DNA from: a virus | Strand: one strand, 5' to 3' | Length of the DNA stretch: 64,000 bases | Virus record (IMG/VR): IMGVR_UViG_3300027744_000013 | Location: 32,001-96,000 of that record | The notes under the pieces: generated by a model | The model's input: only the letters and a program-made list of their open reading frames with translations | Database searches by the model: none | Told to the model about the DNA's origin: nothing | In this document: positions 32,982 to 56,962 of the stretch, piece after piece | Numbering within the stretch: the first letter of the stretch is position 1 | How the letters are laid out: every line of letters starts with the position of its first letter | Program-made: the position numbers and the translations under genes

Positions 32982-33281
32982 ATGAAGACTTTATTAACAG
33001 CTTGTGTATTTGTAGCCGCTACTGGCACGTTATCAGCACAACCACGTACTCTAAACAAGCCAGTTGTGTGTGATGCAACTGAAAAGGTGTTCAAAACAAT
33101 AGTAGAAGACTTTAAAGAAACTCCACAATGGCAAGGGCGTAACCCGCAACAAGGTACCAGCACAGTGCTGACAGTTAACTTGACTACTGGTGCGTGGACT
33201 TTGATCGAATACACTGATATAACAGCCTGTGTGATTGGTGTGGGTGAGAACAGTTCCTCAGCATGGGGAATCCCCATCTAA
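32982..33281 (+). CDS. Exported small protein
   Basis: Signal-peptide-like N-terminus; TAAATA 4 nt upstream. Confidence 0.65.
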   Translation: MKTLLTACVFVAATGTLSAQPRTLNKPVVCDATEKVFKTIVEDFKETPQWQGRNPQQGTSTVLTVNLTTGAWTLIEYTDITACVIGVGENSSSAWGIPI

Positions 33282-33297
33282 ATATCCATATATAAAC

Positions 33298-33723
33298 ATG
33301 CATGAAGCCAGCACTCCCATGATACGTCAACTATTGGTTGAGTGCTGTGATCGACAGGGTTGGCAATTGCCAGAAGACATAGTTAACTACTGCACTATGG
33401 TACTGGCAGATCATGTGGCCAAACCCAATTGGCAACCAAAACCCAGTTATGCAGAACAATTTATGACTGTGCGCACTGTTGAGCAGTATATCAGTTTGGG
33501 TAACGAATGCTGGTTCACTAGGGCTGTATTTCCGGAGTTGATGATCAAGCGTGGTATTAACAGTAGCTACTATGTGGACATGGGCATGGCCTGCTTTGAT
33601 CAAGTGTTGACAAAAACTGCACATCCCACTGTGCGTAAGATCAGAGATCACTTTGAATTCACTGCTGAAGTAGCGTGGACAGCTATACACGCCAGGGATG
33701 GCTTTCGTAGCATGTGGGATTAA
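33298..33723 (+). CDS. Hypothetical protein
   Basis: ORF after TAAATA. Confidence 0.6.
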   Translation: MHEASTPMIRQLLVECCDRQGWQLPEDIVNYCTMVLADHVAKPNWQPKPSYAEQFMTVRTVEQYISLGNECWFTRAVFPELMIKRGINSSYYVDMGMACFDQVLTKTAHPTVRKIRDHFEFTAEVAWTAIHARDGFRSMWD

Positions 33724-33755
33724 TTCAGTATGAGAAATTACTTCATAAATATAAT

Positions 33756-34283
33756 ATGCGAATAATAGAAATTGTAGAAACAATAGGGCCACACAATAAC
33801 AAAGAGCTGGCATTGATGATCCAAGGTACAAAACCTGCGGCGTTAGTGTTTGATACTGAGTTGACCAAATGGAAGCCTTATATAGACAAGTTTAAATGGA
33901 CAGTGACTTCATTTAAAGACTTTAACGGTGGTGTTAGCTATGCTGTTAGTAAAGATCCAAACGGTGCTAAACAGATAGTACAGTTGTTTCAAACAGCCAC
34001 AACAAGCAAAGTGGGTCCAGAGTTTCATGCACAGTTAGGACGCTTATTAGGCTACAGTGAAAAGGACATTGCTGAGTTTCTAGCACAAAAGACCAGCACT
34101 GGTATACTGGGCAGTACAGGTAGGATCTTGGGTCAGTTGGGTCGTAGCATGTTGAGTGCTGTTAAAGTAGTAGGTGGCGCTGCCGCTACATTGGCAACAT
34201 ATAGTCCGGGACTTAACAGTGGGGAAGATGAAGAACTGGCACGTATACGGGCACAAGGTCCTAGAATTACACCTAGACAATAG
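33756..34283 (+). CDS. Possible internal head protein
   Basis: MRIIEIVE start; GRLLGYSE; hairpin at 34282-34300 follows. Confidence 0.55.
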   Translation: MRIIEIVETIGPHNNKELALMIQGTKPAALVFDTELTKWKPYIDKFKWTVTSFKDFNGGVSYAVSKDPNGAKQIVQLFQTATTSKVGPEFHAQLGRLLGYSEKDIAEFLAQKTSTGILGSTGRILGQLGRSMLSAVKVVGGAAATLATYSPGLNSGEDEELARIRAQGPRITPRQ

Positions 34284-34478
34284 GACCCGAAATGGGTCCT
34301 TGCTCCGCAGTTTGGGCCCGCGCAAAAAATTATAAAGAAGTACTTACAGATTCACCCTGGTGATTTTGCACCTATGGTGGTGAAAAAAGGCATGCGCTGT
34401 TGCTATAAAACAACAGTTGTAAATGTATATGCCCCGACCCCCACCCTGCCTCAAATACCATATCCCCACCGGTCGGTC

Positions 34479-34657
34479 AAAAAAAAGCCCCAACAACCGG
34501 GAGCGAATCGGATTTATATTGGGGCTTCAAGAACCCTTGCCGTTTGGACTTGGATTCTTCCTACTGACTGCTTGCCGGGAGCGAATCGTTGGGCAGTCTA
34601 CTACACGTACAGCTAGCACTCTACGGCGCTATGCTGTACCCGCATACATGCTAGCCC
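34479..34657 (-). ncRNA. Candidate four-hairpin small RNA/3' UTR with two AUUCGCUCC loops, ending in an intrinsic terminator
   Basis: 14-bp repeat at 34497-34510 and 34575-34588 inside stems; final stem followed by U-run on minus strand. Confidence 0.6.
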
Positions 34658-35530
34658 TTAGGCGTTGCGCATACACGTTACTTCTACCACAGCCCGCCAC
34701 TTGGCAGGCATACTTACTCGGATGTCCGCTACCTTGAGCACCATACGCAGGCTCAGCTCACGCATACGATCAGCGTTGGCATTGACAAACTCCACGCACT
34801 CGGCCTTGGCTTCATCAGTCAAATCGTATGCATCCAACATGCCCGCATCACGTACTACCTGTTTGATACGCAACAGCTTCTCACGTTGTGTGTCAATGGT
34901 CAAGTCCAAGTAGTGACAGCGTGACTCTAATGCTTCAAGGTGATCGCGTAGCTTCTTGCTACGCACGTGATCGAACTTGATGTTGGTAATGAAGATCGCA
35001 CCACCCTTGAACTCGAATGAGTTAGGCATGCCTTCTTGCTGTAAGCTACGGCTGTCCGTGTTCCAGCAAATCATACGCTTCTTGCCCGAATCCAGTGCGG
35101 CTTTGAGAATGTTCAAGCTCAAGTCATCTAACAGTACTGAGTCACAGTCATCGAACACCAATATGGATTTCTTGTCTGAGAACTCGTACAGCTTCTTGTA
35201 CAGGCCAATGGCACTCATAGCGCCTTTGACCACTTCGTACTTCTTCAGCTTTGAGTCATTGGCTACATCAGCGAACACATCGTGCTTGCTCAGTACCTTC
35301 TCTACACCAAAGCTCTTGCCCACGCCTGGAGGGCCTGTAACGATCATTGATCTAACATCGCCCTTTTTCACTGCACGGGTCATGTCTTCCAGGATCTCAA
35401 AGCGATCAGCCAAACGTTGCATGATCTCTTCATCTGTTTCTGTTAGTACTTTGTTCACGGGCTCTTGTGCCAATGATTTGGATTCTGCTGTGTCTTTAGC
35501 TAGACTCAATGCTGTATGTACCTTTGCCAT
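34658..35530 (-). CDS. AAA+/P-loop ATPase
   Basis: GPPGVGKS, LVFDDCD, IFITN, ALESR. Confidence 0.85.
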   Translation of the reverse strand: MAKVHTALSLAKDTAESKSLAQEPVNKVLTETDEEIMQRLADRFEILEDMTRAVKKGDVRSMIVTGPPGVGKSFGVEKVLSKHDVFADVANDSKLKKYEVVKGAMSAIGLYKKLYEFSDKKSILVFDDCDSVLLDDLSLNILKAALDSGKKRMICWNTDSRSLQQEGMPNSFEFKGGAIFITNIKFDHVRSKKLRDHLEALESRCHYLDLTIDTQREKLLRIKQVVRDAGMLDAYDLTDEAKAECVEFVNANADRMRELSLRMVLKVADIRVSMPAKWRAVVEVTCMRNA

Positions 35531-35609
35531 CTATCGCTCCTTTGTTACGCTGTTAAAGAATTAATTATATAGTCAAGGGCACTGATAGTCAATGCCCTTT
35601 GGTATGCAA

Positions 35610-35936
35610 TTAGTCCAATCTGCTACCACTGTATGCATTCAAACCCAATGCACGGAGGTACTCTGCGTAGGCATCTGCACCCGCTTCTTTGATGTCTATG
35701 TTCTGCACGGGCAGGTTGCCTGGGTTCCACATGCTAAGGCATTTGGGTTTGTAGTCCTTCTTGAACCCTGCGGCAATCAGCTCTTTGGCCTGCGCAGAGT
35801 TGGTGCGATCAACGAACACGTCTACCCAAGCAAAGCCACATGCGAATGCATCCTTACGGCCCATCTTGTCGTACATGGCAATGCTTGCCTGTTCTGCTAG
35901 TGTCTTACCGCTACGGATCTGTTCTGCTGTAATCAT
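35610..35936 (-). CDS. Early hypothetical protein
   Basis: CGFAWV, SRLD end; own promoter and leader. Confidence 0.8.
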   Translation of the reverse strand: MITAEQIRSGKTLAEQASIAMYDKMGRKDAFACGFAWVDVFVDRTNSAQAKELIAAGFKKDYKPKCLSMWNPGNLPVQNIDIKEAGADAYAEYLRALGLNAYSGSRLD

Positions 35937-35979
35937 AAGTTTCGCTCCTTATTTGTTTGTGTAAGTGTATATTATACGA

Positions 35980-36267
35980 TCAAGCCAGCTCTTTGTCAAC
36001 CACGGTTAACATGTTAGCAGGCACTCTCCAGAGGCCCTGACCGGTGTTGACTGTTACATATTTAATGGCAATCTTGGTAACGAAGCCACGTGTGAGTCGT
36101 CCGGTCTTGCCGGACGTGAACTCCACGTTATCGCCAACTGACATGCTACGTTTGATCTGTTTGGCTAGGTTAGCCCTGTTCCATTTGACCGCATCGATCA
36201 TGCTACGAAGTTCGATGTCTGTCCAAGTGCCCAACATGATTGCGGTGTTGACTTGTTTGATATCCAT
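35980..36267 (-). CDS. Early hypothetical, SH3/KOW-like C-terminus
   Basis: VGDNVEF...G.VTKI...WRVPA. Confidence 0.75.
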   Translation of the reverse strand: MDIKQVNTAIMLGTWTDIELRSMIDAVKWNRANLAKQIKRSMSVGDNVEFTSGKTGRLTRGFVTKIAIKYVTVNTGQGLWRVPANMLTVVDKELA

Positions 36268-36302
36268 TAAGTTCGCTCCTTATTGTTTAAGTAGTTATTA
36301 TA

Positions 36303-36446
36303 TTACCAAAGCGTGGGGTTGTCAACCAGCTTCTTCCTGTTGTGAGCAATGATGCCTTCTTCAATGAACAGGGCCACGGCTAGGATCGCCAGGAAGATCC
36401 ACAAGGGCATGGTGTAGTAGAATGCGTAGAGGATAGCGTCGATCAT
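36303..36446 (-). CDS. 47-aa membrane peptide
   Basis: Read manually: MIDAILYAFYYTMPLWIFLAILAVALF...LVDNPTLW. Confidence 0.55.
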   Translation of the reverse strand: MIDAILYAFYYTMPLWIFLAILAVALFIEEGIIAHNRKKLVDNPTLW

Positions 36447-36640
36447 TGTGCGAACACCTCTTTGCTTAGGATTTCGTCTTCAACGATCTGGTTGCAGGCG
36501 TTGAGTGTCAATTGCATGATTTGGTATGCTGTGGCCTTGGCCTCTACTGGCATGCACTCGATGTAGTCCTGAATCTCCGCTAGTGTGCGGGTTGCAAACA
36601 GACCGCTACAGGGAATTGGGTTATTGATGATATTGTACAT
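36443..36640 (-). CDS. Early hypothetical protein
   Basis: Own promoter and leader. Confidence 0.75.
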   Translation of the reverse strand: MYNIINNPIPCSGLFATRTLAEIQDYIECMPVEAKATAYQIMQLTLNACNQIVEDEILSKEVFAQ

Positions 36641-36696
36641 TAGGTTCGCTCCTTAGTGTGTTTAAGTGTTTATTATACTGCCTTTTGGGCAGGGCG

Positions 36697-36858
36697 TCAA
36701 CCTTGCAGATAGCAAGAATGTATAGTGCATCTGGACCCGTACTGGGCTTGGATCATAGCCTTGGCCCTGAAGTCATCGAATGCTGTGACCTGCGTGGTCA
36801 CCCACTGTAGGCTACTGTCCGCACCTTCAACGCTGAATGTCACTTCGAATAGTCTCAT
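36697..36858 (-). CDS. 53-aa early protein
   Basis: Read manually: MRLFEVTFSVEG...; TAATG coupling; stop lies in next -35 box. Confidence 0.6.
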   Translation of the reverse strand: MRLFEVTFSVEGADSSLQWVTTQVTAFDDFRAKAMIQAQYGSRCTIHSCYLQG

Positions 36859-37124
36859 TACATGCTCCAATAGAGTTCGCTGGATGGGTCACATGAGCGC
36901 GGTGTATCATGTGGAATCTGTATGTCCTTGCCACTCATCAAGTTCTTCACAGTCTTCATTGTGGGGAACGCTTCTGCTCTAAAGCCCTGACCGCTGACTT
37001 CCTTGCACTCGCGAGCCATGCTGGCCTCATCTCTGTCTTGCCAAACTGTAGTTGATACAAGACGTTCACCGGTCTTCTTACGACGGTCCGTCTTGTAGAT
37101 GTACATGGTGTAATCTTGTTTCAT
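36858..37124 (-). CDS. Early hypothetical protein
   Basis: VKNLMSG...TP.SCDPSSELYWSM; own promoter. Confidence 0.8.
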   Translation of the reverse strand: MKQDYTMYIYKTDRRKKTGERLVSTTVWQDRDEASMARECKEVSGQGFRAEAFPTMKTVKNLMSGKDIQIPHDTPRSCDPSSELYWSM

Positions 37125-37168
37125 AAGTTTCGCTCCTTATTGTGTCTGTATGTTAGTATTATAAGGCC

Positions 37169-37873
37169 TTAAGCCACTTCTGTCAATCGGATTACGAAGC
37201 CACTGTAGTCCTTCTTTGCACGACCTTTGGCCTTCAAACCAAGCATGATGCCCTTAGGGTCCAAAAAGCGCAAATCAGTTTCGTCTGCACTGGGTACGCC
37301 TGCGGGGATCTTGTCGTAGACCGCAACCACTGACATGCCTTGCAAGAGCGCATCTGCAACATCCGAATCATTGCCGTCAGCCTTGCTGAAGGTCAAGTGG
37401 TAGTTGGCTAGGTGCTTGACCTTACGACCCAGGACCTTGGTGTAGTCGTAGAACTGAACAAAGGAGAAGTATTCAAAGATGTTCTGTCCTGTGCTGGCTA
37501 CCTTGTACTTCTCCCAGCTCAAGTCTGACGTGCCGTTTAAACGAAACACTGGAGTCAAGCCCTTGCGTTCTGCGAACTTGATGGCCTTAGTGATGTCGTT
37601 AACCAAGTCCTGCATGAAGCCTTCACGGTTGTCAAAGAAGTATTGTGTCTTGCGGATGCGAGCCTTTTGGATCATGTTGGTGTTCTCACCCTTCTTGAAC
37701 ATGCCACCACGTCCTGCGGTGTTAAGGCATGCGGCAATGCAACCCTTTGTGGCCTTTGGGCAAGTGTTCTTGCCTGACAAGTCGCTGGGTGCAAGGTGCA
37801 GGATAAAGCTGAGATAGCCCATCTTAGTACCCTTTTGGATCTTAGGATTGGCAGTGCTGAGTAATTTAAACAT
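37169..37873 (-). CDS. Gp88-family protein (radical-SAM-like Cys motif)
   Basis: CP.A..GC...CL..AGRG, RLNGTSD, FYDYTK, DLRFLDP. Confidence 0.75.
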   Translation of the reverse strand: MFKLLSTANPKIQKGTKMGYLSFILHLAPSDLSGKNTCPKATKGCIAACLNTAGRGGMFKKGENTNMIQKARIRKTQYFFDNREGFMQDLVNDITKAIKFAERKGLTPVFRLNGTSDLSWEKYKVASTGQNIFEYFSFVQFYDYTKVLGRKVKHLANYHLTFSKADGNDSDVADALLQGMSVVAVYDKIPAGVPSADETDLRFLDPKGIMLGLKAKGRAKKDYSGFVIRLTEVA

Positions 37874-37939
37874 TGTTTTCGCTCCAGTGTTTGTTTGTAT
37901 GTAAGTATTATAGCAGGATTGGGCCCACCTGTCAACCGA

Positions 37940-38170
37940 TCAATCCCAGCTTTTCTTGTCCCCAAACTGCTCATTGTACTGATAACCCGCCAAGTAGGCC
38001 TGGATCTCTGTAGGCGTCATTTGGCTCTGATCAACGCGATCGCCGTTGTAAGTACCTTCTGGGTACATATGGGGATCACGTGGGCGATGGTAGTAAGAGT
38101 CTGCTGATCCACGATCGAATGCACCACCGTGCTCTGTATTGTAGTTCTGTTTGGTTTCTAATGTGATCAT
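37940..38170 (-). CDS. Early hypothetical protein
   Basis: HGGAFDRGSADSYY; GGAG RBS. Confidence 0.75.
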   Translation of the reverse strand: MITLETKQNYNTEHGGAFDRGSADSYYHRPRDPHMYPEGTYNGDRVDQSQMTPTEIQAYLAGYQYNEQFGDKKSWD

Positions 38171-38370
38171 ACAGTCTCCTTGACAATCAATTTGCTTAAT
38201 GGGCCAATCAGTTCTAACTCCTTGGGGTTGTACCATGCAACCTTCTGCATAGAACCCTCTGGAATAACTAGGCTAACATCGCCATGGTCGTTTACTTCAG
38301 CAACCACAGCCAGTGTACCGAACTTGGTCCAGACAGCGTCTAGTACCTTAAGGGGCTTCTTCTTGCTCAT
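38167..38370 (-). CDS. Early hypothetical protein
   Basis: ATGA coupling; ends KETV like the upstream gene. Confidence 0.7.
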   Translation of the reverse strand: MSKKKPLKVLDAVWTKFGTLAVVAEVNDHGDVSLVIPEGSMQKVAWYNPKELELIGPLSKLIVKETV

Positions 38371-38744
38371 ACAGTCTCCTTAATGAAATAACGATATGGG
38401 AGGCCTAACAAGAAGCAAAGGTACTCGTCGTCACCATTGCTACCCTCTGCCTCATGGACCCAACGCAGGGCCATCTCACGGTCCTTAGCACCCGTCTGTA
38501 GGAGACCCAGCATACGCATTTCGAAGTCATGCTTGGCTACTTCTTCACGGGCCAATTGCTCTGTATAGTTCTCATCGATGGTCTTGGCCAGGCTAACGAA
38601 CTCAGCTTCGAACTGGGCTTCAGTCCACTCTGTAGTGTCGATACCGCGTGGGCGAACGCCATAGGCATCCTTGTACATATCCCAGAACTGGCAAGCATAT
38701 TGCTCTACGGTACTCATCTCTTCCCAGCTTTTGAATTCATTCAT
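38367..38744 (-). CDS. Early hypothetical protein
   Basis: DMYKDAYGVRPR; own promoter. Confidence 0.8.
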   Translation of the reverse strand: MNEFKSWEEMSTVEQYACQFWDMYKDAYGVRPRGIDTTEWTEAQFEAEFVSLAKTIDENYTEQLAREEVAKHDFEMRMLGLLQTGAKDREMALRWVHEAEGSNGDDEYLCFLLGLPYRYFIKETV

Positions 38745-38906
38745 CTTATGCTCCTTTGTGTGTCTGTATGCTAGTATTATAGCAAAGCCAGCCCAAAGTG
38801 TCAACCACGAGAGTGTTGTATTAATACAACAGGCACCGACCCCGTCCACCCCCCTCTGTTCGACTATGCTAGTATACGATCGGGTGGGGTTTCTGTCAAC
38901 CAAAGA

Positions 38907-38981
38907 TGGTCCGGCGTAACGGAATCGAACCGCTATTTAGGGAGTAGAAATCCCCTGTATTATCCATTATACGAACGCCAG
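38907..38981 (-). tRNA. tRNA-Arg(UCU)
   Basis: Full cloverleaf, anticodon loop TT-TCT-AC, encoded CCA. Confidence 0.92.
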
Positions 38982-38982
38982 A

Positions 38983-39061
38983 TGGTAGGCCCTCCCAGAG
39001 TCGAACTGGGCACCAATGGATTATGAGTCCACTGCTCTAACCAAGCATGAGCTAAGGGCCT
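38983..39061 (-). tRNA. tRNA(CAU), probably Ile2
   Basis: Cloverleaf, loop CT-CAT-AA, Ile2-like body, encoded CCA. Confidence 0.88.
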
Positions 39062-39254
39062 ATGATAATTTAATACGTTCTAACTCTATCAACTCGCCTT
39101 CTTCGTCTTCCTTGTAGATGACGTACTCAGTATGGTACTCATCAATGTTAGCGTCAGCGATTTGACGGGCTTCTTTTAGACTCTTTGTAGTATCAACGAG
39201 ATCTTCATGGCCATCTGCATCAATGGACCAAACCTCATAGAGTTCCCAGTTCAT
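39060..39254 (-). CDS. Acidic early protein
   Basis: Coupled ORF. Confidence 0.65.
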   Translation of the reverse strand: MNWELYEVWSIDADGHEDLVDTTKSLKEARQIADANIDEYHTEYVIYKEDEEGELIELERIKLS

Positions 39255-39429
39255 CTTTCGTGCTTTCGTAGTTTAGGAGGTCACAGAGCTTGATTGCTAT
39301 CTGCTCTGCTTCGTGCTGGTTATCGCGAGCGATAACGCATAAGACGCGGCCTTTCGGGTGACTCTCGAAGTCTCGTATGACAACCTTGTTGTCTCCGTAA
39401 TCGTCACTTAGAGAGCACCCGTACCGCAT
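39235..39429 (-). CDS. Early hypothetical protein
   Basis: Coupled ORF. Confidence 0.6.
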   Translation of the reverse strand: MRYGCSLSDDYGDNKVVIRDFESHPKGRVLCVIARDNQHEAEQIAIKLCDLLNYESTKDELGTL

Positions 39430-39432
39430 TAA

Positions 39433-39801
39433 TTAGAACGGAGCGTCTTCGTTCTCAACAACCTTAGCAGTCTTTGTCACGCCAGGGGCTTTGACAGCTT
39501 TGGTTGGTGCTTTGGCAACTGGTGCCTTGGCCTTAGGAGCAGCCTTAACCTTAGGAGCCTTTTCCTCAAGGTACTCTGCAATTGCTGATTGAGCAGCCGC
39601 ATCACTAAAGTCTGCCATGGTGGCAATTTGTTTCACTGCTTCATACTTTGAAACAGGAGTATCCAACTCGCACAAGCGGATGTCTTCGTGTCCGTGTTTC
39701 GCAAGTACCTTGATACGCATGATATCAGTTGCGAAGCGAACCTTGTACTCGCCGCCGAGCTTTGATACACCAACGATGTTAAATGTTTTATCTGTAGCCA
39801 T
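39433..39801 (-). CDS. Protein with Lys/Ala/Pro-rich histone-like tail
   Basis: KAPKVKAAPKAKAPVAKAP; GAGG RBS. Confidence 0.75.
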   Translation of the reverse strand: MATDKTFNIVGVSKLGGEYKVRFATDIMRIKVLAKHGHEDIRLCELDTPVSKYEAVKQIATMADFSDAAAQSAIAEYLEEKAPKVKAAPKAKAPVAKAPTKAVKAPGVTKTAKVVENEDAPF

Positions 39802-39848
39802 TTGTAATACCTCTTCTGTGTGTGATTAAAATTAGTTAAAGAACTTCT

Positions 39849-40124
39849 CTAACTGTTATTATTATAGTGCCGTTTCGCCTTCTTGTCAACCATTTTGTTT
39901 GCCTTTTGGGCAACCATTTGGAACTCTTTTTGGATATAATGTGCAACCATCATGTTCTTAATCATAATGGTTAAATCGGACCCATGATCATCTGGACAGA
40001 TGAATCGGACAGGGCAAGTGCCCCATCCACCGTATTCTACGAACTCAAAGTACCAGCGCCTATGAGCTTTGTTAGCAGGATCAAAGGCTACCAGTGGACG
40101 GGCAAGATATTCTAGTCTACTCAC
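39849..40124 (-). CDS. Early hypothetical protein
   Basis: FDPANKAHR, WGTCPVRF. Confidence 0.7.
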   Translation of the reverse strand: MSRLEYLARPLVAFDPANKAHRRWYFEFVEYGGWGTCPVRFICPDDHGSDLTIMIKNMMVAHYIQKEFQMVAQKANKMVDKKAKRHYNNNS

Positions 40125-40174
40125 GATCCCTTGCCCATTTTGCCATAATGGCTTCTAGTTGGTCCATTGCTTCT

Positions 40175-40810
40175 TTACTTGGTGTCATTTTCTTGTTCCT
40201 GTTCGTTAGTTGCACTCAACCCGCCATCAAGATCGATGTCGATATTTTCCTCTTCGTATTCAGCCATGCACTCGCTGATGCCAAACATCTCGTCCAATTC
40301 TGACGGAACGTCTTCGGCTACCTGTGTGCTAGACATGCCGCCCAGCTCATAGAAGTCATCACCGTTCTCATCATAGATACCAGCAAAGCACATGCCCGGC
40401 TCATAGTAATACAGTCGAACTGAGAAGCCCAAGTCCATGAACTTGTCCATGGCCGCTGTGGGGGGTGCCCAGGCTGAATCAAAACTCATTGTAATCTTGT
40501 TAGGGCTGTCTTGCTGTGGTTCGTTATAGTCATCACCACCTACATCCCACTTGGTGCCCCACTCATTAACGCAGTAGTCATACCATGTGGCATAACCATA
40601 GGTGCTGAGATTGTGCATGGTCTGCTCTTGCAGTTTGATCTGCTCGGGCTCTTCATCACTACCTACGCGGCCTGCTACAATCTGCAGAGCCTGTGGCACT
40701 GGACAGAACTCTGCCAGGAACCGGCCTTCAGCAAAGGCCTTCTTGGCCCGGGTAATCATTGCAGGGTCTTCGTGCTGGAGTTCCAGCGTGTTGTTGCACC
40801 AATTAGGCAT
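40175..40810 (-). CDS. YubB ferredoxin-like (DUF1281-type) protein
   Basis: MPNWCNN, WGTKWD, FDSAWAPP, YYEPGMCFAG. Confidence 0.8.
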   Translation of the reverse strand: MPNWCNNTLELQHEDPAMITRAKKAFAEGRFLAEFCPVPQALQIVAGRVGSDEEPEQIKLQEQTMHNLSTYGYATWYDYCVNEWGTKWDVGGDDYNEPQQDSPNKITMSFDSAWAPPTAAMDKFMDLGFSVRLYYYEPGMCFAGIYDENGDDFYELGGMSSTQVAEDVPSELDEMFGISECMAEYEEENIDIDLDGGLSATNEQEQENDTK

Positions 40811-40811
40811 A

Positions 40812-40955
40812 TTAGACTCCAGTGTGTAAAGGATTGCGTTTACGAAGGTGTGCCAAAGCGGCCTCTTTGCTGTCAAAGCGACCCGAGATGGGCGTTTGAT
40901 GGCTACCACGCACAATGAACCAACCTGCTAACAGGCTATTGAAGATGACTTTCAT
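40812..40955 (-). CDS. 47-aa early protein
   Basis: Read manually: MKVIFNSLLAGWFIVRGSHQTPISGRFDSKEAALAHL...; GGAG RBS. Confidence 0.6.
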   Translation of the reverse strand: MKVIFNSLLAGWFIVRGSHQTPISGRFDSKEAALAHLRKRNPLHTGV

Positions 40956-40956
40956 C

Positions 40957-41223
40957 TTAGACTCCCATTTCGTAAAAGGTTACTGAAGGATCAATGCTGA
41001 GCAGTTCTTCTGCACAACGGCTAAGGAACTTAACTCTGCGGCTTACTTCTGCACGGGGCAGTTCGCCATCGCATGTTAGGTTCTCTGGGCTCATGTCGCT
41101 GTCAATGCGATCTGCAATCTTTTGACGATCAGCGGCGTTGAGCAGGCTGAGTGGCTTGTTGCCAAACAAGGCACCCCATCGATTGATACCATCTACATAC
41201 TGTTCTATGGTTGCTATGTTCAT
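40957..41223 (-). CDS. Early hypothetical protein
   Basis: SPENLTCDGE; own promoter and leader. Confidence 0.8.
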   Translation of the reverse strand: MNIATIEQYVDGINRWGALFGNKPLSLLNAADRQKIADRIDSDMSPENLTCDGELPRAEVSRRVKFLSRCAEELLSIDPSVTFYEMGV

Positions 41224-41286
41224 AAGTTTCGCTCCTTATCTGTTTGTGTAAGTGTATATTATACTGCCAACTACCCAACTTGTCAA

Positions 41287-41595
41287 TAGTAAAGAGGAAC
41301 CATTGTGCATCTGTCTCTACCCTATGCAACGTCTACATAGGGCCTGCACGGTCATTACTACTAGATTGTCCACCGCAAGTCCGGATCCACATGGCCTAAG
41401 CCATTGATCCTGTTTCATGCTCCTGGACTTGACCAACCCCCGTCGGTATTGTCATCATCCCAGTCGCCTAGTGGTCTAGTTAACCTCAATTTGGGAGGCC
41501 GAGTCTACAAACTCGCTTCGTATCCCTTGGTTCCAACCCTTTTTGCATTTCTGCGTGGGTTCTTACATTCGAGGATCGCCTTTATCTTTTACTTG
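41287..41595 (-). ncRNA. Candidate ~300-nt structured ncRNA
   Basis: Own promoter, no convincing ORF, many nested helices, paired ends. Confidence 0.65.
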
Positions 41596-41617
41596 TTTCT
41601 ATTATAGTCTCTTTCGC

Positions 41618-41878
41618 CTACTTCGTCAATCGGAACTTGTCAATAACCCTTTTTGCTTCAAGGTTATCAGGAAGCATACCATCTTCGGCCATGCCCTTAC
41701 GATAAGTCTCAACCAGTTCCATCTTCATCATCTCTACAATGCTCTCGCACTCGGCCTTTTCCCGCTTGGGCAAGGTAGCAATGAATCGTTCTGCATCACT
41801 CCACTCTTCAATGCTCCACAGAATGTCTGCTAGAACCTTTTGGCGGGCATTGAGGCCCTCTAATGTGATCTCAACCAT
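41618..41878 (-). CDS. Early hypothetical protein
   Basis: Coupled ORF. Confidence 0.7.
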   Translation of the reverse strand: MVEITLEGLNARQKVLADILWSIEEWSDAERFIATLPKREKAECESIVEMMKMELVETYRKGMAEDGMLPDNLEAKRVIDKFRLTK

Positions 41879-42017
41879 TGTCGCGTCCTTTGTGTTTGGG
41901 GTTGCGTTTAAATTTTACCTTGCTCTGCACAACCTTCTGCTTGAAGGGTGTGTCCTTGCAGAACAGGACAATGTGTGCCCTGACCTGCTTGGGTAGTTTG
42001 ATTGTAATCTTCATCAT
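41871..42017 (-). CDS. Basic 48-aa peptide
   Basis: Own promoter; PFKQKVV..K..FKR.PKH. Confidence 0.65.
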   Translation of the reverse strand: MMKITIKLPKQVRAHIVLFCKDTPFKQKVVQSKVKFKRNPKHKGRDNG

Positions 42018-42096
42018 GTGCTCCTGTCTGTATAAATGTATTATACAACCAAAAGCCCAAAGCGTCAACCGCTAAACAGCGGGGCCTGGTCTAGTG

Positions 42097-42291
42097 TTAG
42101 GCTCCGTAGTAGTCGGGCGACTCGGTGTCCTGTGGCGTTTCCGCAACATCTTCACGGGCCACCCCAAAGTCATCCAGTACATCGTAGACATACTCAATTG
42201 GGATCAACAGCTCTGCGGCAATAGCCTTTGCACCGTAGCCCTCAATGAATAGGGTCTCTACATCGTAATACATATCTTTGACTGCACCCAT
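42097..42291 (-). CDS. Early hypothetical protein
   Basis: TAATG coupling. Confidence 0.7.
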   Translation of the reverse strand: MGAVKDMYYDVETLFIEGYGAKAIAAELLIPIEYVYDVLDDFGVAREDVAETPQDTESPDYYGA

Positions 42292-42521
42292 TATGCGTTC
42301 TCCATCTCTTTGCGTTGTTCAACTTCTGCTACCAACTCCTCGTCTGAGAAGTTACCGTAGCCCTTAAATCCATCTTCCAGGTATGTCCAAAGCAGTTCTA
42401 GACCCCCGTCGTCTGTAGACATTATATAGTCAAAGTCGCTTTGGGTCAAGTAGTCAACGGCTGTTTCTCTATCGAATAGCTTGTCTTTCGCACTCGCCTT
42501 TTTGCTTTGGAATCCAGTCAT
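42291..42521 (-). CDS. Early hypothetical protein
   Basis: TAATG coupling. Confidence 0.7.
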   Translation of the reverse strand: MTGFQSKKASAKDKLFDRETAVDYLTQSDFDYIMSTDDGGLELLWTYLEDGFKGYGNFSDEELVAEVEQRKEMENA

Positions 42522-42988
42522 TATGCGTACTCCCCTTCTGTGAGGAACGCTTCTTCAAGCGTCACATAGTTGTCGCTGTGGTCTGCTACAAACCAAACAG
42601 CCTTGCCGTTGACGTTGCGCAGGATGTACTCAAATTCTTCGTACTGGTGATTGGCAACATAGTCTGCATAGTCTTTGAACTTCTTAGCAGGGCACTTCTC
42701 GTTGCGATCACGTCCGTAGAATGTACACATATTCTCTACCAGTGCTTCGTGTGCATCGCGTTCCTCTTTGGTTTCCAATTGGAATGAGCTAAACGGATGT
42801 TGGACGCCAATGGTAGGGCGCAGGCTAGACAAGTCACCCAAGTCAATCAGCCTGCGCAGTTTGAACGGGTCACTGTAATGTTCAGCAAGGATCTTGCCGT
42901 TGTTGCTCAAGTAACCGTCCCAGTGGCAGTATACCTGCTCTACTGTACCGTCTGCGTATTCAAGTGCGATTGTTGAACGTGTTCCCAT
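42521..42988 (-). CDS. Early protein with YCHWDGY motif
   Basis: MGTRSTI...YCHWDGY...YGRDR; own promoter. Confidence 0.8.
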   Translation of the reverse strand: MGTRSTIALEYADGTVEQVYCHWDGYLSNNGKILAEHYSDPFKLRRLIDLGDLSSLRPTIGVQHPFSSFQLETKEERDAHEALVENMCTFYGRDRNEKCPAKKFKDYADYVANHQYEEFEYILRNVNGKAVWFVADHSDNYVTLEEAFLTEGEYA

Positions 42989-43044
42989 TTTAGCTCCTAG
43001 TGTGTTTGTGTATGTGTATATTATAGCGCCTTTTGGGCACCCAG

Positions 43045-43257
43045 TCAATCAGCCCAGCATTCCGTGGCCAAGCGTGTGGTTATTGTTTCACCACCAATGT
43101 AGTCACCTGAGAAGCCATGCTTGTTCTCCAGCACAAGAGCCACGCCAGCATAAGTCTTCTTGATCTCTATGATCTTGGCCCATTGCTCGATGTCGCTCTT
43201 GAAGGCCACGTTGTCGCCTACCTTAACTTCTACATCATGTACCATGCAAGTCTTCAT
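43045..43257 (-). CDS. Early hypothetical protein
   Basis: Own promoter and leader. Confidence 0.75.
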   Translation of the reverse strand: MKTCMVHDVEVKVGDNVAFKSDIEQWAKIIEIKKTYAGVALVLENKHGFSGDYIGGETITTRLATECWAD

Positions 43258-43322
43258 AGTTCGCTCCTAGTGTGTTTGTGTATGTGTTAATTATAACAGG
43301 GAACCCAGTCCCTGTCAACCAA

Positions 43323-43520
43323 TTAGCGATTGGCAAACTCGCAGTCGGCACCCTCGGGACCAACCTTGACTTCGTCGTACCAGGTAATCTCATACCCAAA
43401 GTCCTCGCCCTCCAAGACTGCGATACGAGCCAGGGCCAGCTTGGCAGTGGGATACACTCCGTAGATCATGCTCTCAGGAGCGCCACGGTATTCAGCACGA
43501 ACAATAAAAATAGAAGTCAT
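43323..43520 (-). CDS. Early hypothetical protein
   Basis: Own promoter. Confidence 0.7.
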   Translation of the reverse strand: MTSIFIVRAEYRGAPESMIYGVYPTAKLALARIAVLEGEDFGYEITWYDEVKVGPEGADCEFANR

Positions 43521-43561
43521 TTTGTTTCCTTAGTGTGTTGCGATGTGTGTATTATAACGTC

Positions 43562-43810
43562 TCAAGCCCACTCTGTCAACTGGACGTCAGCAATAACCCT
43601 ACTGCCTGTATGGGTAAGGAATACCTTAGTGCTGTCAGAACCGCCCTTGCACAGGAAGACTGCCATGTAGCAGAACTGCCCACCGTTGGTGATGCCCAGG
43701 AACTTGCATGAGCTGAACGCAGGGCCCTTGTAGCCCGCATCCTTGGCCGCCCGGGTTAGGGCTGGTGCTGAGAAGCTGATAAGGGTCTTAAGTGTGTCAG
43801 GTGTGATCAT
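43562..43810 (-). CDS. Early hypothetical protein
   Basis: ATGA coupling. Confidence 0.7.
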   Translation of the reverse strand: MITPDTLKTLISFSAPALTRAAKDAGYKGPAFSSCKFLGITNGGQFCYMAVFLCKGGSDSTKVFLTHTGSRVIADVQLTEWA

Positions 43811-44055
43811 GCCAGCACCACTACCTTTCTAACGTCTGTACGCAAGTCGCCAGTCTCTTTATCAAACTGGTCCTCGTACTCCCCTACCATCTTGTCCATG
43901 CGGTGGTACTCACTGTACTCCACTACACCCTCGTCAACCCTATCAATCTTAGGGGCTACTTCTGTGCGCCAGTGGTCGCCGTAGCAGTAGCTGAAGTGGA
44001 CCTCTGCGTCCTGATCCATATACTTGAGGGATTCGATAAGTTCTTTGACTAGCAT
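43807..44055 (-). CDS. Early hypothetical protein
   Basis: MLVKELIE.L; own promoter and leader. Confidence 0.75.
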   Translation of the reverse strand: MLVKELIESLKYMDQDAEVHFSYCYGDHWRTEVAPKIDRVDEGVVEYSEYHRMDKMVGEYEDQFDKETGDLRTDVRKVVVLA

Positions 44056-44105
44056 AGTTTCGCTCCTATTGCGTTGTTGATGTATGTATTATAACGCCTT
44101 TTGGG

Positions 44106-44372
44106 TTAGGCGTCAACCGCTTCTTTAAAATAGACAACTTTGATTGTGCCTTTTGCACGATCTTCTACGAACACGTATTCTGCACTTTCGTTAAAATTAG
44201 CACGTGGATCGCTTAGGACCTTCTTAGTCATAATCTTAACACTGCGCACACTAACAGAACCCTGCCAGTCTTCGTGGGCCACGTTTTCGTTGTAGCTGTA
44301 TTTGCCGAGGCATCCGCACATACAACCGATCTTGCCCGAATATACTTTGGCCACTTTGCTGATGTCTAACAT
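44106..44372 (-). CDS. Early hypothetical protein
   Basis: YSGK.GCMCGC.GKY; own promoter and leader. Confidence 0.75.
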   Translation of the reverse strand: MLDISKVAKVYSGKIGCMCGCLGKYSYNENVAHEDWQGSVSVRSVKIMTKKVLSDPRANFNESAEYVFVEDRAKGTIKVVYFKEAVDA

Positions 44373-44467
44373 AGTTTCGCTCCTAATGTTTGTTTGTATG
44401 TGTGTATTATAGCACTGTTTGGGCAAAGCGTCAACCGCGTTAAAAAAAGCCCCTAAGGGCTGTAGGG

Positions 44468-44629
44468 TTATGCTACTGCTTTATAAACTATTACAGTAGT
44501 GTCCGCAAAATCTGCGTGTGCATTGTAAAATGCTTGTGCTCGTGCAATAGCGTCTTCTGCGCTAGTTGCTGTTACTACGCACAAATCTTCTATGTTGTCG
44601 TAACGCAAATAAACTGTGTATTTCTGCAT
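44468..44629 (-). CDS. 53-aa early protein, GA/GG-free template
   Basis: Read manually: MQKYTVYLRYDNIEDLCVVTATSAEDAIARA...; own promoter. Confidence 0.7.
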   Translation of the reverse strand: MQKYTVYLRYDNIEDLCVVTATSAEDAIARAQAFYNAHADFADTTVIVYKAVA

Positions 44630-44764
44630 GGTGTTTCCTTTGTTGCTAAGTGTTAATTATAGCGCAAAGGGTCCAAAACGTCAACAGCTTTGTGCAAAGA
44701 CCCTGATGTCAACCAGGTCTTTTTTTAGGCCGTAAAAAAACCCTACGTAGTGTAGGGTTTCTTA

Positions 44765-44977
44765 TTATGCTCCGACTTTTGCAAGAACTTCTGTTACATG
44801 TTCTACCAACTGCCAGACGGGTCGTTTCTGCGTATCGGTATAGCGGATAGCTGGCTTGCCGTTTTTAAAGTCATTGTTGATCTCTTCAACGATAACAATA
44901 ATAGCGGGACTACTGCCAAACCCTTCGCGTACTTTTACGATGGAGCCGACTTCTATTTGGTCTACTGTTACATACAT
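44765..44977 (-). CDS. Early hypothetical protein
   Basis: AAGGAGG RBS. Confidence 0.7.
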   Translation of the reverse strand: MYVTVDQIEVGSIVKVREGFGSSPAIIVIVEEINNDFKNGKPAIRYTDTQKRPVWQLVEHVTEVLAKVGA

Positions 44978-45008
44978 GATAGCACCCTCCTTAGTATAGT
45001 CTTATTTA

Positions 45009-45218
45009 TTAATAAAAAAGGCCTAGTACATATAGAGCGAGCAGTACTCCGTTAACAATAATTAAATTAGTTTCCTTAATGCGCACAGCCCAAATCAAGT
45101 ACAGTAGGGCCCCCGCATTTAGAAAGTATATGTTAAGGGGGTCTATGCGCAGGCTAGTAAACAGGGCCCCTGCTAGCACTGTAGCGCACCCTGCCCATTT
45201 TAGTATGTTGTTTAACAT
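45009..45218 (-). CDS. Small membrane protein
   Basis: Three hydrophobic segments; TAATG coupling. Confidence 0.7.
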   Translation of the reverse strand: MLNNILKWAGCATVLAGALFTSLRIDPLNIYFLNAGALLYLIWAVRIKETNLIIVNGVLLALYVLGLFY

Positions 45219-45595
45219 TACAGTTCCATGCTCGCATAGCCGTCGTCTTGCATACCCTGCTCTGTAAACATAACGTCTGTACCTAGCAGTGTGCTAATCG
45301 CATCTACAAAACCGCTGTCTGTGTACAGTCTCCAGCTGTCCTCGTACTCCGCATCGCCGTTAACCGTGTAGCACACTGCAATGTGTATGCTACTGTCGCC
45401 GTCCAATTCGTCCCACCATGTCTCGTGTATGTGTATGCTTGTAACTGTAACTGCCTCAATCTCGCAGTCCCATATACTGTCACCTGCAAGTTGCACCTCT
45501 ACGTTGCAGTCGTATGTTGTACTAATACTGTCTGTGTTAGTCTCTGTACTTGCCAGTGTCAGCTTGTTGCTAACTTCAAATTGTGTTGCTTGCAT
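45218..45595 (-). CDS. Acidic early protein, GA/GG-free template
   Basis: IYTD-like YTDSGF, FTEQGMQ; own promoter; no Pro. Confidence 0.8.
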   Translation of the reverse strand: MQATQFEVSNKLTLASTETNTDSISTTYDCNVEVQLAGDSIWDCEIEAVTVTSIHIHETWWDELDGDSSIHIAVCYTVNGDAEYEDSWRLYTDSGFVDAISTLLGTDVMFTEQGMQDDGYASMEL

Positions 45596-45635
45596 AGTTT
45601 TCGCTCCTAATGCTTGTTAAAAATTAATTATACAC

Positions 45636-45791
45636 TCAATCTACGTAATAGTCAACCGCTTCTGTTAGCTTGTGCAAAGCACCCTCTAACTCAGCAAAGC
45701 ACCCCATCTCTGCTAGTTGCTCGCCGTCCAGCGTTGCCTCTAACAGCATGTCTTCTACTTCTGCTAGCTTTGCAAGTATCTCGTCTCTCAT
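45636..45791 (-). CDS. 51-aa acidic early protein, GA/GG-free template
   Basis: Read manually: MRDEILAKLAEVEDMLLEATLDG...EAVDYYVD; AAGGAG RBS. Confidence 0.7.
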   Translation of the reverse strand: MRDEILAKLAEVEDMLLEATLDGEQLAEMGCFAELEGALHKLTEAVDYYVD

Positions 45792-45792
45792 T

Positions 45793-46011
45793 TTACGCTC
45801 CTTCTGTGTAAGTATAACCCACTTCGCCTGCTAGTGCGCAGTCCATCCACTCCTCAAAGCAGTCCTCTGCGTACTCCTCTTCCCAAATTAGTATTTCGTC
45901 ACAGCTAGCAATCTCCTTGCCGCGTTGTAGCGTTACCTTTACAGTACTACCGCTAGCATATTCGCTAGTGTAATAGCCTGCCGCTTCTATGTTTACTACT
46001 TTTACTTTCAT
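45793..46011 (-). CDS. Acidic early protein, GA/GG-free template
   Basis: Own promoter and leader; no Pro. Confidence 0.75.
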   Translation of the reverse strand: MKVKVVNIEAAGYYTSEYASGSTVKVTLQRGKEIASCDEILIWEEEYAEDCFEEWMDCALAGEVGYTYTEGA

Positions 46012-46088
46012 TTCGCTCCTTTGTTGCTAAGTGTTAATTATAGCGCATTTAGCCAAAACTGTCAAATGCGCTATAAAGACCCTACAGT

Positions 46089-46343
46089 TTACTCTACAAA
46101 TTCTACGCTGTTTGTGCGTAGTTGTGCGTAAACGCTAGGCAATACAGTACTTAATTCTTGTGCTAAGTTTTCTGCAAGTAAGTCGCCGCTAACATAAGCG
46201 CATTTTGCTTGTGTAGGAAATGCATACTTTACTATGCCTGCTGTAGTAATTGTTTTGTGTGCGTTAAACGCCACAACTAGTTTGTAAGATTTAAGTTTTT
46301 TGTTAAAAACTAACTTGGCTTTTGCAACACAATTTGTAAGCAT
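46089..46343 (-). CDS. Early hypothetical protein, GA/GG-poor template
   Basis: Own promoter. Confidence 0.75.
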   Translation of the reverse strand: MLTNCVAKAKLVFNKKLKSYKLVVAFNAHKTITTAGIVKYAFPTQAKCAYVSGDLLAENLAQELSTVLPSVYAQLRTNSVEFVE

Positions 46344-46441
46344 TTGGTTTCCTTTTTGTTTAAGTGTTAATTATACTGCACTTAGCCCAAAGTGTCAAGC
46401 CAAAAAAGAATAACCCTGGAGCCAGCAGGGTTATCCATGGT

Positions 46442-46762
46442 TCACAAGTACTGGTCGTTCAAGCTGGGCACTTGTTCCTTAACCAGTGCTCGTTCGTATG
46501 CATAGGCTTCCTTGCGTCCGCGTATGATTGCGAGAACCCGGTGTTCCCAAGCCCAATCCATAGCACCCATCTTCAAGTACTCGTACAGGACCCAAGCCCT
46601 GTTTTCGTTACGGGCACGGCTGATATGCTTGCGCCACCGTTCCTTAACCACCTTGTTGACATTGGCCAGGCTCTTGCGTGTTAGGCCAATGTAGTTCTCG
46701 CCGTGCTCATCCGTCATTTCGTATATGATGTAGTTGCAGTCTACTCGGGTTTTACGTCTCAT
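46442..46762 (-). CDS. GIY-YIG nuclease-like protein
   Basis: YIIY...YIGLT, RWRKH, E...LN; own promoter and leader. Confidence 0.75.
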   Translation of the reverse strand: MRRKTRVDCNYIIYEMTDEHGENYIGLTRKSLANVNKVVKERWRKHISRARNENRAWVLYEYLKMGAMDWAWEHRVLAIIRGRKEAYAYERALVKEQVPSLNDQYL

Positions 46763-46863
46763 GGTTCGCTCCAATCTCTCAGTATCTTATTATAACATTT
46801 GGAACCCAAAGTGTCAACCGCCAAAAATACCCACACTCAGCCCAGGGTCTCTCTAAAAGCCGT

Positions 46864-56122: not shown

Positions 56123-56465
56123 TCAAGCCAGTAATGGCCCAATGGCCAGCCCAAAAGAAAAACGTGTAATTGATAAGTTTATGGTATTTGGTGATCGGGT
56201 ACACGAAATACACACAGTTATTGTACACCGATTTAGAATGGGCGATGTTGAAGATCCAGACTTGTATGCGGCTGAACCATTATTGGCTTGGCAACAAAGT
56301 GAAATGGGTGAATGGATAATGGAACGGGCTGTGGATACTCCAGAATGGCACCGAATGGCAGATGTTGCTAGTTACGGATACAAATATGCTATTGTAGCCA
56401 AACTCAAAGATGTTGATTACACTTGGTGGACGCTCAAATGGGGCAACACTGTGATTGACATATAA
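56109..56465 (+). CDS. Hypothetical, ends WWTLKWG (start uncertain)
   Basis: GDVEDPDLYAA.P. Confidence 0.65.
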   Translation: MANYSQASNGPMASPKEKRVIDKFMVFGDRVHEIHTVIVHRFRMGDVEDPDLYAAEPLLAWQQSEMGEWIMERAVDTPEWHRMADVASYGYKYAIVAKLKDVDYTWWTLKWGNTVIDI

Positions 56466-56488
56466 TCATAATGATAGTATAATACAGC

Positions 56489-56962
56489 ATGACAGAAACA
56501 ATCTTCTATATCAAAAAAGGTCGCAAGTACATTCCGCACAGTACCTATAGTTCGGAGTTCTGCGACAGCTTTCCCAAAGGCACACACTTGGTTGATGTGT
56601 ACCCTGGTGGATCAAGTCGTAGGTTCAACATTGATCCAGCTTATGCTCCAATGATAGCCGCGGCCCGAGTTGCCGAAGATGCTATTAGTAACAGCATCAT
56701 GGAGGCAAGTAAGTTGCGTGTTCCTGAACGTGATCAGCCATTAACTCCAGCACAGTTAAAAGCATGGAAGGCATTGGCCAAGGCATTTGGTAAAGATCAG
56801 TATGCCCTTGAGTGGTGTAGTTATAGAGAAGCAGCCGAGGCCGGTATCAAGGCCATGCAGGTAGAGGCAGACAAACTGTTAACTAACCCAACTGTTCGTA
56901 AAGCATACGAAAAGTTTTTATTTGTATCAGCACTAACAAAGGATCATACTAATGGAACCTAG
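56489..56962 (+). CDS. Hypothetical protein
   Basis: TTGACA-17-TATAAT then ATG 5 nt later. Confidence 0.75.
   Translation: MTETIFYIKKGRKYIPHSTYSSEFCDSFPKGTHLVDVYPGGSSRRFNIDPAYAPMIAAARVAEDAISNSIMEASKLRVPERDQPLTPAQLKAWKALAKAFGKDQYALEWCSYREAAEAGIKAMQVEADKLLTNPTVRKAYEKFLFVSALTKDHTNGT

Follow-up and report, generated by a model that had tools for sequence, protein, structure and literature searches.

Complementary leader tags and 3′ tail loops co-evolve at the early gene array of an uncultured giant phage

Introduction

In Staphylococcus aureus, the 3′ untranslated region (UTR) of the icaR mRNA contains a UCCCCUG motif. Pairing of this motif with the message's own Shine–Dalgarno region, which can occur in cis or in trans, blocks ribosome loading; the duplex between 5′ and 3′ UTRs is a substrate for RNase III (PMC3868564). 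Here, we describe a comparable arrangement in a 64,000 nt stretch of viral DNA, hereafter the window (positions 32,001 to 96,000 of IMG/VR record IMGVR_UViG_3300027744_000013). An array of early genes, on the minus strand of the window, ends with a gene encoding a 290 amino acid (aa) ATPase. Behind this gene is a 179 nt tail that can fold into hairpins. Two of the hairpin loops, which we call anti-tags, are complementary to an extended ribosome-binding site, the tag, found upstream of early genes.

Other RNAs display similar motifs. In the cuckoo/CcsR1-4 small RNAs (sRNAs) of Alphaproteobacteria, two to four hairpins stand side by side. Their stems vary greatly, but each loop has the same pyrimidine-rich motif, CCUCCUCCC, which resembles an anti-Shine–Dalgarno sequence; the CcsR RNAs derive from a 3′ UTR by processing (PMC4615179, PMC8034643). 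RNAIII/RsaE-type sRNAs of S. aureus use loop-displayed UCCC motifs to pair, in trans, with the Shine–Dalgarno regions of several targets (PMC3868564). Phages P1 and P7 encode the c4 antisense RNA, with loops that complement a phage message at its ribosome-binding region. P1 and P7 differ in this match, which underlies their heteroimmunity (PMC12197685). Like c4, the tail described here is phage-encoded and its loops are complementary to the ribosome-binding region of phage targets.

Proteins, including sigma factors, RNA polymerase modifiers, RegA and RegB, are the usual explanation for temporal control in lytic phages. RegA and RegB silence the early messages of phage T4 through ribosome-binding sites; RegA is a repressor and RegB is a nuclease that cuts GGAG. 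We found no description, in phages, of a system such as that reported here in the searchable literature, the coverage of which is incomplete.

Results

A tag extends the ribosome-binding sites of promoter-proximal early genes

The tag, GGAGCGAA, consists of the Shine–Dalgarno core GGAG and a private 4 nt extension, CGAA. On the minus strand of the window it occurs at exactly 12 sites (Table 1). Each is 0–5 nt before an ATG and belongs to a gene just behind a consensus σ70 promoter. These are the same 12 places named in an earlier account of this DNA, hereafter the original prediction. A further 7 nt match, reported near position 35534, was also found and is the leader of the ATPase gene itself. 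The complement of the tag is at 34500 and 34578, and an unrelated copy of the tag is on the plus strand at 60395. In all, 15 copies of the tag or its complement were counted in the window, where 0.95 were expected; this number was reached by 0 of 100 shuffles. A UCGCUCC sequence at 50288 on the plus strand is inside an open reading frame (ORF) and was taken to be a chance occurrence.

Whereas the tag is present at 12 of 18 promoter-proximal array genes, it is found at 0 of 15 internal ones (p = 5e-5; array genes were called heuristically). Internal genes have ordinary and varied Shine–Dalgarno sites. Hence, one RNA could not act directly on the whole early regulon, as had been proposed. Among relatives, 431 promoter-proximal leaders were compared; 208 have GGAGCGAA and 277 have GGAGCGAN. 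The A/C-rich sequence beside the tag drifts in the same leaders. By this comparison, the tag is a selected feature of 5′-terminal early leaders, since it is kept while adjoining sequence is not. In a complete 383 kb relative, seven tags and then two loops form a single cluster.

Two array promoters on the minus strand (41601–41629 and 39861–39889) have no tagged ribosome site behind them. No obvious ORF follows one of them; behind the other is a long leader that terminates in AGAGG.

The early array ends in a structured 3′ UTR

The four stems and the U-run that had been predicted to follow the last array gene were all found (Table 1). As claimed, hairpins 2 and 4 share an identical sequence. 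This is the 14-mer CGAUUCGCUCCCGG, at 34575–34588 and 34497–34510, which places AUUCGCUCC in both loops. Hairpin 3 has no anti-tag. Its loop keeps the sequence CCAA...GGCAA, as do the flanks of the anti-tag in hairpin 2 (CCAACG-loop-CGGCAA), and the same is seen in relatives such as L146, L130 and L124. Hairpin 3 may be a decayed anti-tag copy, or the internal-loop bases may have a role of their own.

We searched for a consensus-like promoter between positions −250 and +60 of the ATPase stop codon and found none in any of 101 relatives (0/101). Similarly, no σ70-like promoter was found on the plus strand between 32372 and 36257. The tail is therefore the structured 3′ UTR of the ATPase mRNA and early transcripts, rather than a free-standing RNA gene, and the idea of an independent sRNA gene was abandoned. 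Rfam covariance models gave no match at E ≤ 1 for positions 33000–36000 of the window or for five sister-clade loci.

Some relatives have extra anti-tag mini-hairpins inside the array, directly after the stop codons of other early genes (L134:319-356, L137:1957, L143:1860 and L121:2132). One such form is CUAG-UUCGCUCC-UAG, and L134 has a second twin-hairpin element.

Just past the terminator, at 34340–34470, is a block kept in most relatives. It contains a G-tract (GGGGGTCGGGGCATATA), a palindrome (CTGTTG...CAACAG) and then GCGCATG...CACC..ATAGGTGCAAAATCACCA.

Anti-tag loops are conserved on covarying stems

A search of IMG/VR with the ATPase returned more than 596 loci. We kept the best 80, which are 71–90% identical, and 79 of these had tails long enough to judge. 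All 79 tails (79/79) have one to three hairpins with an anti-tag loop. The loop is AUUCGCUCC in 147 of the 154 hairpins and AAUCGCUCC in the other seven. The remainder of the tail diverges widely in sequence, length and hairpin number. Pairs closing the loop covary between relatives (CCG/CGG, GUG/CAC, CUG/CAG and CCA/UGG). For hairpins of the hairpin 2 type, 32 sequences could be aligned without gaps. The 7 bp outer stem is 97% paired, with both-sided changes at all seven pairs, and pairing drops to 16–38% when the partners are slid by 1–3 columns. Internal loops are also conserved (CCAA/GYAA and UAAAUCCG). The near-invariant loops and the covarying stems count in favour of the predicted match between loops and leader extension, a match maintained by selection.

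The pattern of mismatches distinguishes the two strands. Stem positions 1–7 contain 11 G·U pairs but a single A·C; at positions 1–6 the numbers are 7 and 0. This preference for G·U over A·C, together with the U-tract, argues that the functional RNA is the ATPase-sense (minus) strand. When minimum free energies were compared for hairpins and their reverse complements, the antisense fold was on average ~1 kcal/mol more stable; the strand was decided by the column-by-column tally of G·U and A·C.

We also scanned IMG/VR for altered loops using the degenerate pattern CCAACGA-N7-CCCGGYAA. Among the matches listed there were only chance ones without stems. A scan with the 14-mer found true relatives and many single chance matches.

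Leader and loop have changed together between clades

Sister clades were reached by related-locus searches with representative proteins; the search with protein P0129 returned nothing. Immediately behind the homologous ATPase gene, where the window's clade has its tail, sister clades have a different pyrimidine-rich element, which is complementary to the leader of its own clade. Thus, the leader GGAGGAGCAA is found with the 3′ element UUGCUCCUCC (L317, L318 and L322), GAGGAGCAAG with CUUGCUCCUC (L323 and L324), GGAGAGAG(U) with (A)CUCUCUCC (L328), GGAGAGAGA with UCUCUCUCC (L338 and L339) and GAUGGAGCG with CGCUCCAUC (L391).

One clade has three states. In L340 the leader is AAGGAGCAA and the 3′ element is UUGCUCCUU. 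In L330–L333 the leader is AAGGAGUAA, with the same UUGCUCCUU element, and a G·U pair results. In L334–L336 the leader is AGGAGUAA and the element is UUACUCCU. The ATPase tree places L340 outside (L336,(L330,L332)). Hence, the simplest history would be a compensatory path from G-C, through G·U, to A-U. The covariation of loop and leader that the original prediction had named as a check in related phages is therefore present between sister clades, which have changed both partners and include a G·U intermediate.

For each clade, the longest Watson–Crick match between the tail and its own leader was compared with dinucleotide shuffles. The p values were 0.001–0.03 per clade, with a Fisher combined p of 5e-8 over six clades. 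By this measure, the predicted pairing of loops with leaders is well supported. Co-change of this kind is what RNA–RNA pairing predicts; a protein site, a DNA operator or coincidence would not readily account for it. In a more distant clade (L393–L403) the leaders lack a tag-like extension, and there is just a plain terminator with a UUCG loop.

Sister clades L317–L329 and L337–L344 have a second conserved hairpin, ~20–60 nt after the one complementary to the Shine–Dalgarno site and ahead of the next gene. It has the form GGCGGUGUG-UUUAGAAAUAGA-CACACCGCC, with UUUAGAAAUAGA in the loop and covarying stems.

The loop–leader duplex is predicted to be stable

The 8 bp duplex between loop and leader has a predicted free energy of −12.4 kcal/mol, or −14.1 kcal/mol with flanks. 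The same leader would pair with an anti-Shine–Dalgarno sequence at −8.5 kcal/mol; the sequence used was of the Escherichia coli type and may not be that of the host 16S rRNA. Opening the leader costs 0.6–3.5 kcal/mol. Across 116 regions around translation starts of the contig, the median energy of pairing with the loop is −4.8 kcal/mol; the top five, at −13 to −14 kcal/mol, are all leaders of tagged early genes. In the thermodynamic ensemble of the 180 nt tail, the anti-tag in the terminator loop is open (P = 0.88 for all eight bases unpaired).

Metatranscriptome coverage at the end of the array

In six metatranscriptome runs, half or more of the words sampled from the stretch were found; in the four of these that were analysed, contigs cover the ATPase gene and tail. 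These contigs are unstranded assemblies, the depths of which are not comparable between genes and are a poor measure of expression. Summed depth drops just past the terminator, for example from 190–324 to 0 in run X15. In run X17, two contigs break at 34476/34490. We take this coverage, with its drop in depth and contig breaks, as no more than a weak hint of expression. One metatranscriptome contig ends, with adapter, at 34549.

Source contig, neighbouring genes and strain differences

The tail and tags are on a 108 kb contig rated as ~29% of the virus genome (IMG/VR, CheckV rating). Complete relatives are 345–383 kb. Hence, the contig is a fragment of an uncultured giant (jumbo) myovirus. Sequencing runs containing it are from lake and other freshwater metagenomes. 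The nearest cultured relatives are the distant jumbo phages PA5oct and Atu_ph07 (~41–49% protein identity for the tail sheath and the ATPase gene). A megablast search with positions 34000–38000 against cultured phages returned zero matches. Homologues of the ATPase are found in T4-type and PA5oct-type phages; in PA5oct, further genes directly follow the homologous gene. Pfam PF13191 is recorded on relatives of the ATPase, and metagenomes contain >8000 homologues of the linked ATPase.

Genes for tRNA-Arg(TCT) and tRNA-Met are within the early array (38907–39061, minus strand). Outside the array, at 56455–56491 on the plus strand, a TTGACA-17-TATAAT promoter is followed 5 nt later by the ATG of a 157 aa ORF (56489–56962). 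This is probably a leaderless gene.

In metatranscriptome contigs from two studies, 35977 is followed directly by 37182, with 1204 nt missing, and a further contig joins 36702 to 37878. All of these breakpoints are in, or adjoin, promoter–leader cassettes. Strains therefore seem to differ by whole cassettes, probably via recombination between repeated promoters.

Table 1. Positions of the early array, its tagged ribosome sites and the elements of the 3′ tail.
Feature	Coordinates	Strand	Details
Early array	35564–46817	minus	22 co-oriented TTGACN-17-TATAAT near-consensus promoters, each with an A/C-rich leader behind it
Tagged ribosome site GGAGCGAA	46765–46772	minus	promoter 46817, ATG 46762
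Tagged ribosome site	46012–46019	minus	promoter 46065, ATG 46011
Tagged ribosome site	45600–45607	minus	promoter 45655, ATG 45595
Tagged ribosome site	44376–44383	minus	promoter 44434, ATG 44372
Tagged ribosome site	44059–44066	minus	promoter 44116, ATG 44055
Tagged ribosome site	43260–43267	minus	promoter 43318, ATG 43257
Tagged ribosome site	41228–41235	minus	promoter 41286, ATG 41223
Tagged ribosome site	37878–37885	minus	promoter 37935, ATG 37873
Tagged ribosome site	37129–37136	minus	promoter 37186, ATG 37124
Tagged ribosome site	36645–36652	minus	promoter 36700, ATG 36640
Tagged ribosome site	36272–36279	minus	promoter 36325, ATG 36267
Tagged ribosome site	35941–35948	minus	promoter −35 at 35999, ATG 35936
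ATPase gene's own leader, GGAGCGAU	35533–35540	minus	7/8 match (GGAGCGAT); promoter −35 at 35592, ATG 35530
ATPase gene, last of early array	34658–35530	minus	290 aa, nrdC.10-like AAA ATPase; phrog_1250, E = 2e-85
3′ untranslated tail	34479–34657	minus	179 nt, four hairpins, intrinsic terminator at end (sequence and predicted fold)
Hairpin 1	34612–34655	minus	GCUAGCA/UGCUAGC, without anti-tag
Hairpin 2	34566–34598	minus	outer stem GACUGC/GCAGUC, 4 × 4 internal loop CCAA/GCAA, inner CG/CG stem
Anti-tag loop 1	34578–34586	minus	AUUCGCUCC, exact complement of GGAGCGAA
Hairpin 3	34529–34559	minus	AAGAAUCC/GGGUUCUU, without anti-tag
Hairpin 4	34485–34527	minus	terminator stem AAGCCCCAA/UUGGGGCUU, inner CCG/CGG stem
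Anti-tag loop 2	34500–34508	minus	AUUCGCUCC, within terminator loop
U8 tract of terminator	34479–34486	minus	

Discussion

It is very probable that RNA pairing between the ribosome-site extension of early genes and the loops of the tail controls early protein synthesis. The structured 3′ UTR would be part of any transcript that begins in the early array and runs to its terminator. There are few terminator-like sites within the array, so an early transcript that extends to the end of it probably has two anti-tag loops. In the short mRNA of the ATPase gene itself, two loops would be available for one leader. In our model, the AUUCGCUCC loops would pair with GGAGCGAA in unstructured 5′ leaders and cover the ribosome-binding site. 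As tails accumulate, they would occupy the tagged promoter-proximal ribosome sites, in trans or in cis. Lower translation initiation of tagged early messages would be the most likely outcome, because the predicted duplex (approximately −12 to −14 kcal/mol) beats the predicted pairing with an E. coli-type anti-Shine–Dalgarno sequence. Faster decay or polarity may also result. Early expression would then be subject to delayed negative feedback that uses only RNA and spares genes without the tag in their ribosome site. We infer that the pairing occurs in the cell and represses, and that the acting form may be either the full-length mRNA or a processed 3′ fragment. Taken as a whole, the reading of the tail as a source of delayed feedback through tagged leaders is reasonably probable.

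Several observations weigh against this reading. Tag and loop are nearly invariant within the window's own clade; consequently, covariation comes only from comparisons between clades. The seven variant loops (AAUCGCUCC) lack matching GGAGCGAU leaders in the same genomes: the two were tested as partners and do not go together. The CU-rich loops of several clades are of low complexity and would pair with many Shine–Dalgarno sites. For this reason a clade's tail can be outranked by those of other clades: when energies were compared across clades, it came first or second for 9 of 15 leaders, but as low as ninth and 13th for two. Clades L320 and L341 match their own leaders weakly. The tag is missing from a third of promoter-proximal genes, as well as from all internal genes, and a single low-depth contig, from a relative, bridges the terminator. 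Finally, the original prediction placed both anti-tags in loops. The ensemble fold agrees for the terminator loop, but the first anti-tag is predicted to be mostly taken up by a competing structure (P = 0.01; 2.8 kcal/mol needed to open it). The hairpin drawn for this first copy is nevertheless backed by the comparative data.

Pairing between 5′ and 3′ UTRs could instead occur solely in cis, with the anti-tag acting only within the molecule that carries it. Looping of the ATPase mRNA, or of long read-through transcripts, would then autoregulate translation or protect or expose the ends, and tags elsewhere would reflect spread of the promoter–leader module. The position of the element, always behind the ATPase gene, fits this explanation. 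So does its match, in every clade, to the ATPase leader; ~85% of these leaders in the window's clade are GGAGCGA. The icaR (PMC3868564) and Bacillus subtilis hbs (PMC5737220) mRNAs provide precedents for the mechanism. However, 12 cassettes as far as 12 kb upstream retain the full octamer, as do about half of the 431 leaders in relatives, while the neighbouring leader sequence drifts. In the window, the ATPase's own leader is the weaker match. The two to three loops per tail, and the extra anti-tag hairpins behind other early genes in relatives, also count against an exclusively cis-acting element. We consider such a restriction to cis unlikely. Cis autoregulation of the icaR type, as distinct from cis action alone, appears as well supported as a 'master switch' acting in trans, because in each clade there is a match between the 3′ element and the leader of the mRNA that carries it.

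Alternatively, the hairpins could be sites for an RNA-binding protein or nuclease, with roles in processing, stability or termination control, and complementarity to the leader would be secondary. Conservation of the internal loops beyond the anti-tag, and the retention of CCAA..GGCAA by hairpin 3, which has no anti-tag, count in favour of a protein site. The co-change of loop and leader in six clades, with a shifting register and a G·U intermediate, would be left unexplained. Hence, a protein site as the main function is very improbable.

The original prediction also raised the possibility that the opposite strand is a decoy. In this case, plus strand RNA with GGGAGCGAAUC hairpin loops would titrate a CsrA-type protein that binds GGA. 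CsrA and RsmA recognise GGA displayed in hairpin loops, and the plus strand loops would contain GGA. However, the 7–11 G·U pairs of the minus strand become C·A mismatches on the plus strand, and the converse applies to only 0–1 pairs. The U-tract follows the hairpin on the minus strand alone, the plus strand lacks a σ70-like promoter in the interval searched, and there is no Rfam match to CsrB/Rsm families. Furthermore, in the clade with U in the leader and G in the tail, the other strand would have an A·C mismatch. A decoy is therefore scarcely credible. Equally implausible is a double-stranded DNA motif, bound in either orientation by a DNA-binding protein, from the phage or its host, that turns early promoters off: although the motif is at approximately +25 to +33 of promoters and inverted at the array end, the array-end copies are embedded in stems that covary as RNA, tag–promoter distance varies while the position next to the ATG is fixed, and matched length and register differ between clades, one state being a G·U pair.

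Among described systems, icaR is similar in that the tail matches the leader of its own gene, over 7 nt (GGAGCGA) in the window and 8–10 nt in relatives and sister clades. Whereas icaR is a single chromosomal gene with one UCCCCUG motif, and has been studied experimentally, the phage is known from sequence alone. This virulent giant phage also has one to three loop-displayed copies, a 4 nt tag on a dozen cassettes and clade-specific pairs. The tail resembles cuckoo/CcsR RNAs in its four hairpins, two with the motif (one to three motif hairpins in relatives), and its covarying stems. The loops of sister-clade phages (CUCCUCCUCC, CUCCUCC-type) are also similar to CCUCCUCCC. Conversely, the loop in the window's clade is AUUCGCUCC, not CCUCCUCCC. 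The upstream gene encodes a PF13191/phrog_1250 ATPase rather than DUF1127 (with RNase E maturation), the presumed targets are the phage's own tagged leaders and Rfam gives no match. The c4 RNA concerns a single antirepressor operon of a temperate phage; here, a 3′ tail is matched to many cassettes of a lytic-type early array. Since the tail has no Rfam match to any family, no homology to c4 was found. RNAIII and RsaE differ in being independent host sRNA genes with a generic seed against the Shine–Dalgarno sequence. The phage seed is privately extended, and its RNA has no promoter of its own. As with 3′ UTR-derived sRNAs, the tail lacks a promoter and ends at the terminator (hairpin and U8) of the upstream gene. 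CsrB and RsmZ differ because GGA is in loops only on the plus strand, and the evidence favours the minus strand. Given the absence of an Rfam match, and the different loop, upstream gene and biological setting, the tail would work like icaR, cuckoo/CcsR and c4 but is a member of none of them.

The role proposed for the tail is that of T4 RegA and RegB, which, by contrast, are proteins. Pfam domains for RegA and RegB were not found on the contig, which covers ~29% of the genome. Tentatively, giant aquatic phages could have an addressable RNA code, with a tag on early cassettes and an anti-tag on a 3′ tail, that serves as an RNA-only timer for early shut-off; we regard this broader idea as rather doubtful. 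If true, the timer would be a functional analogue of RegA/RegB. Because each clade has its own tag/anti-tag pair, a phage might also be able to distinguish its early messages from host ones, or from those of a relative infecting the same cell, in the way that c4 does for P1 and P7.

If confirmed, the pairing would be a phage case of 3′ UTR-based regulation with many targets. It would supply natural orthogonal tag/anti-tag pairs, usable as translational switches, and a signature by which early genes could be recognised in the genomes of uncultured phages. Covariation makes the pairing hypothesis directly testable, by reporter swaps between clades. Judging by the comparisons made here, a whole class of early messages appears to be regulated through a short, co-evolving RNA–RNA match in an abundant group of giant phages, uncultured and found in fresh and marine waters.

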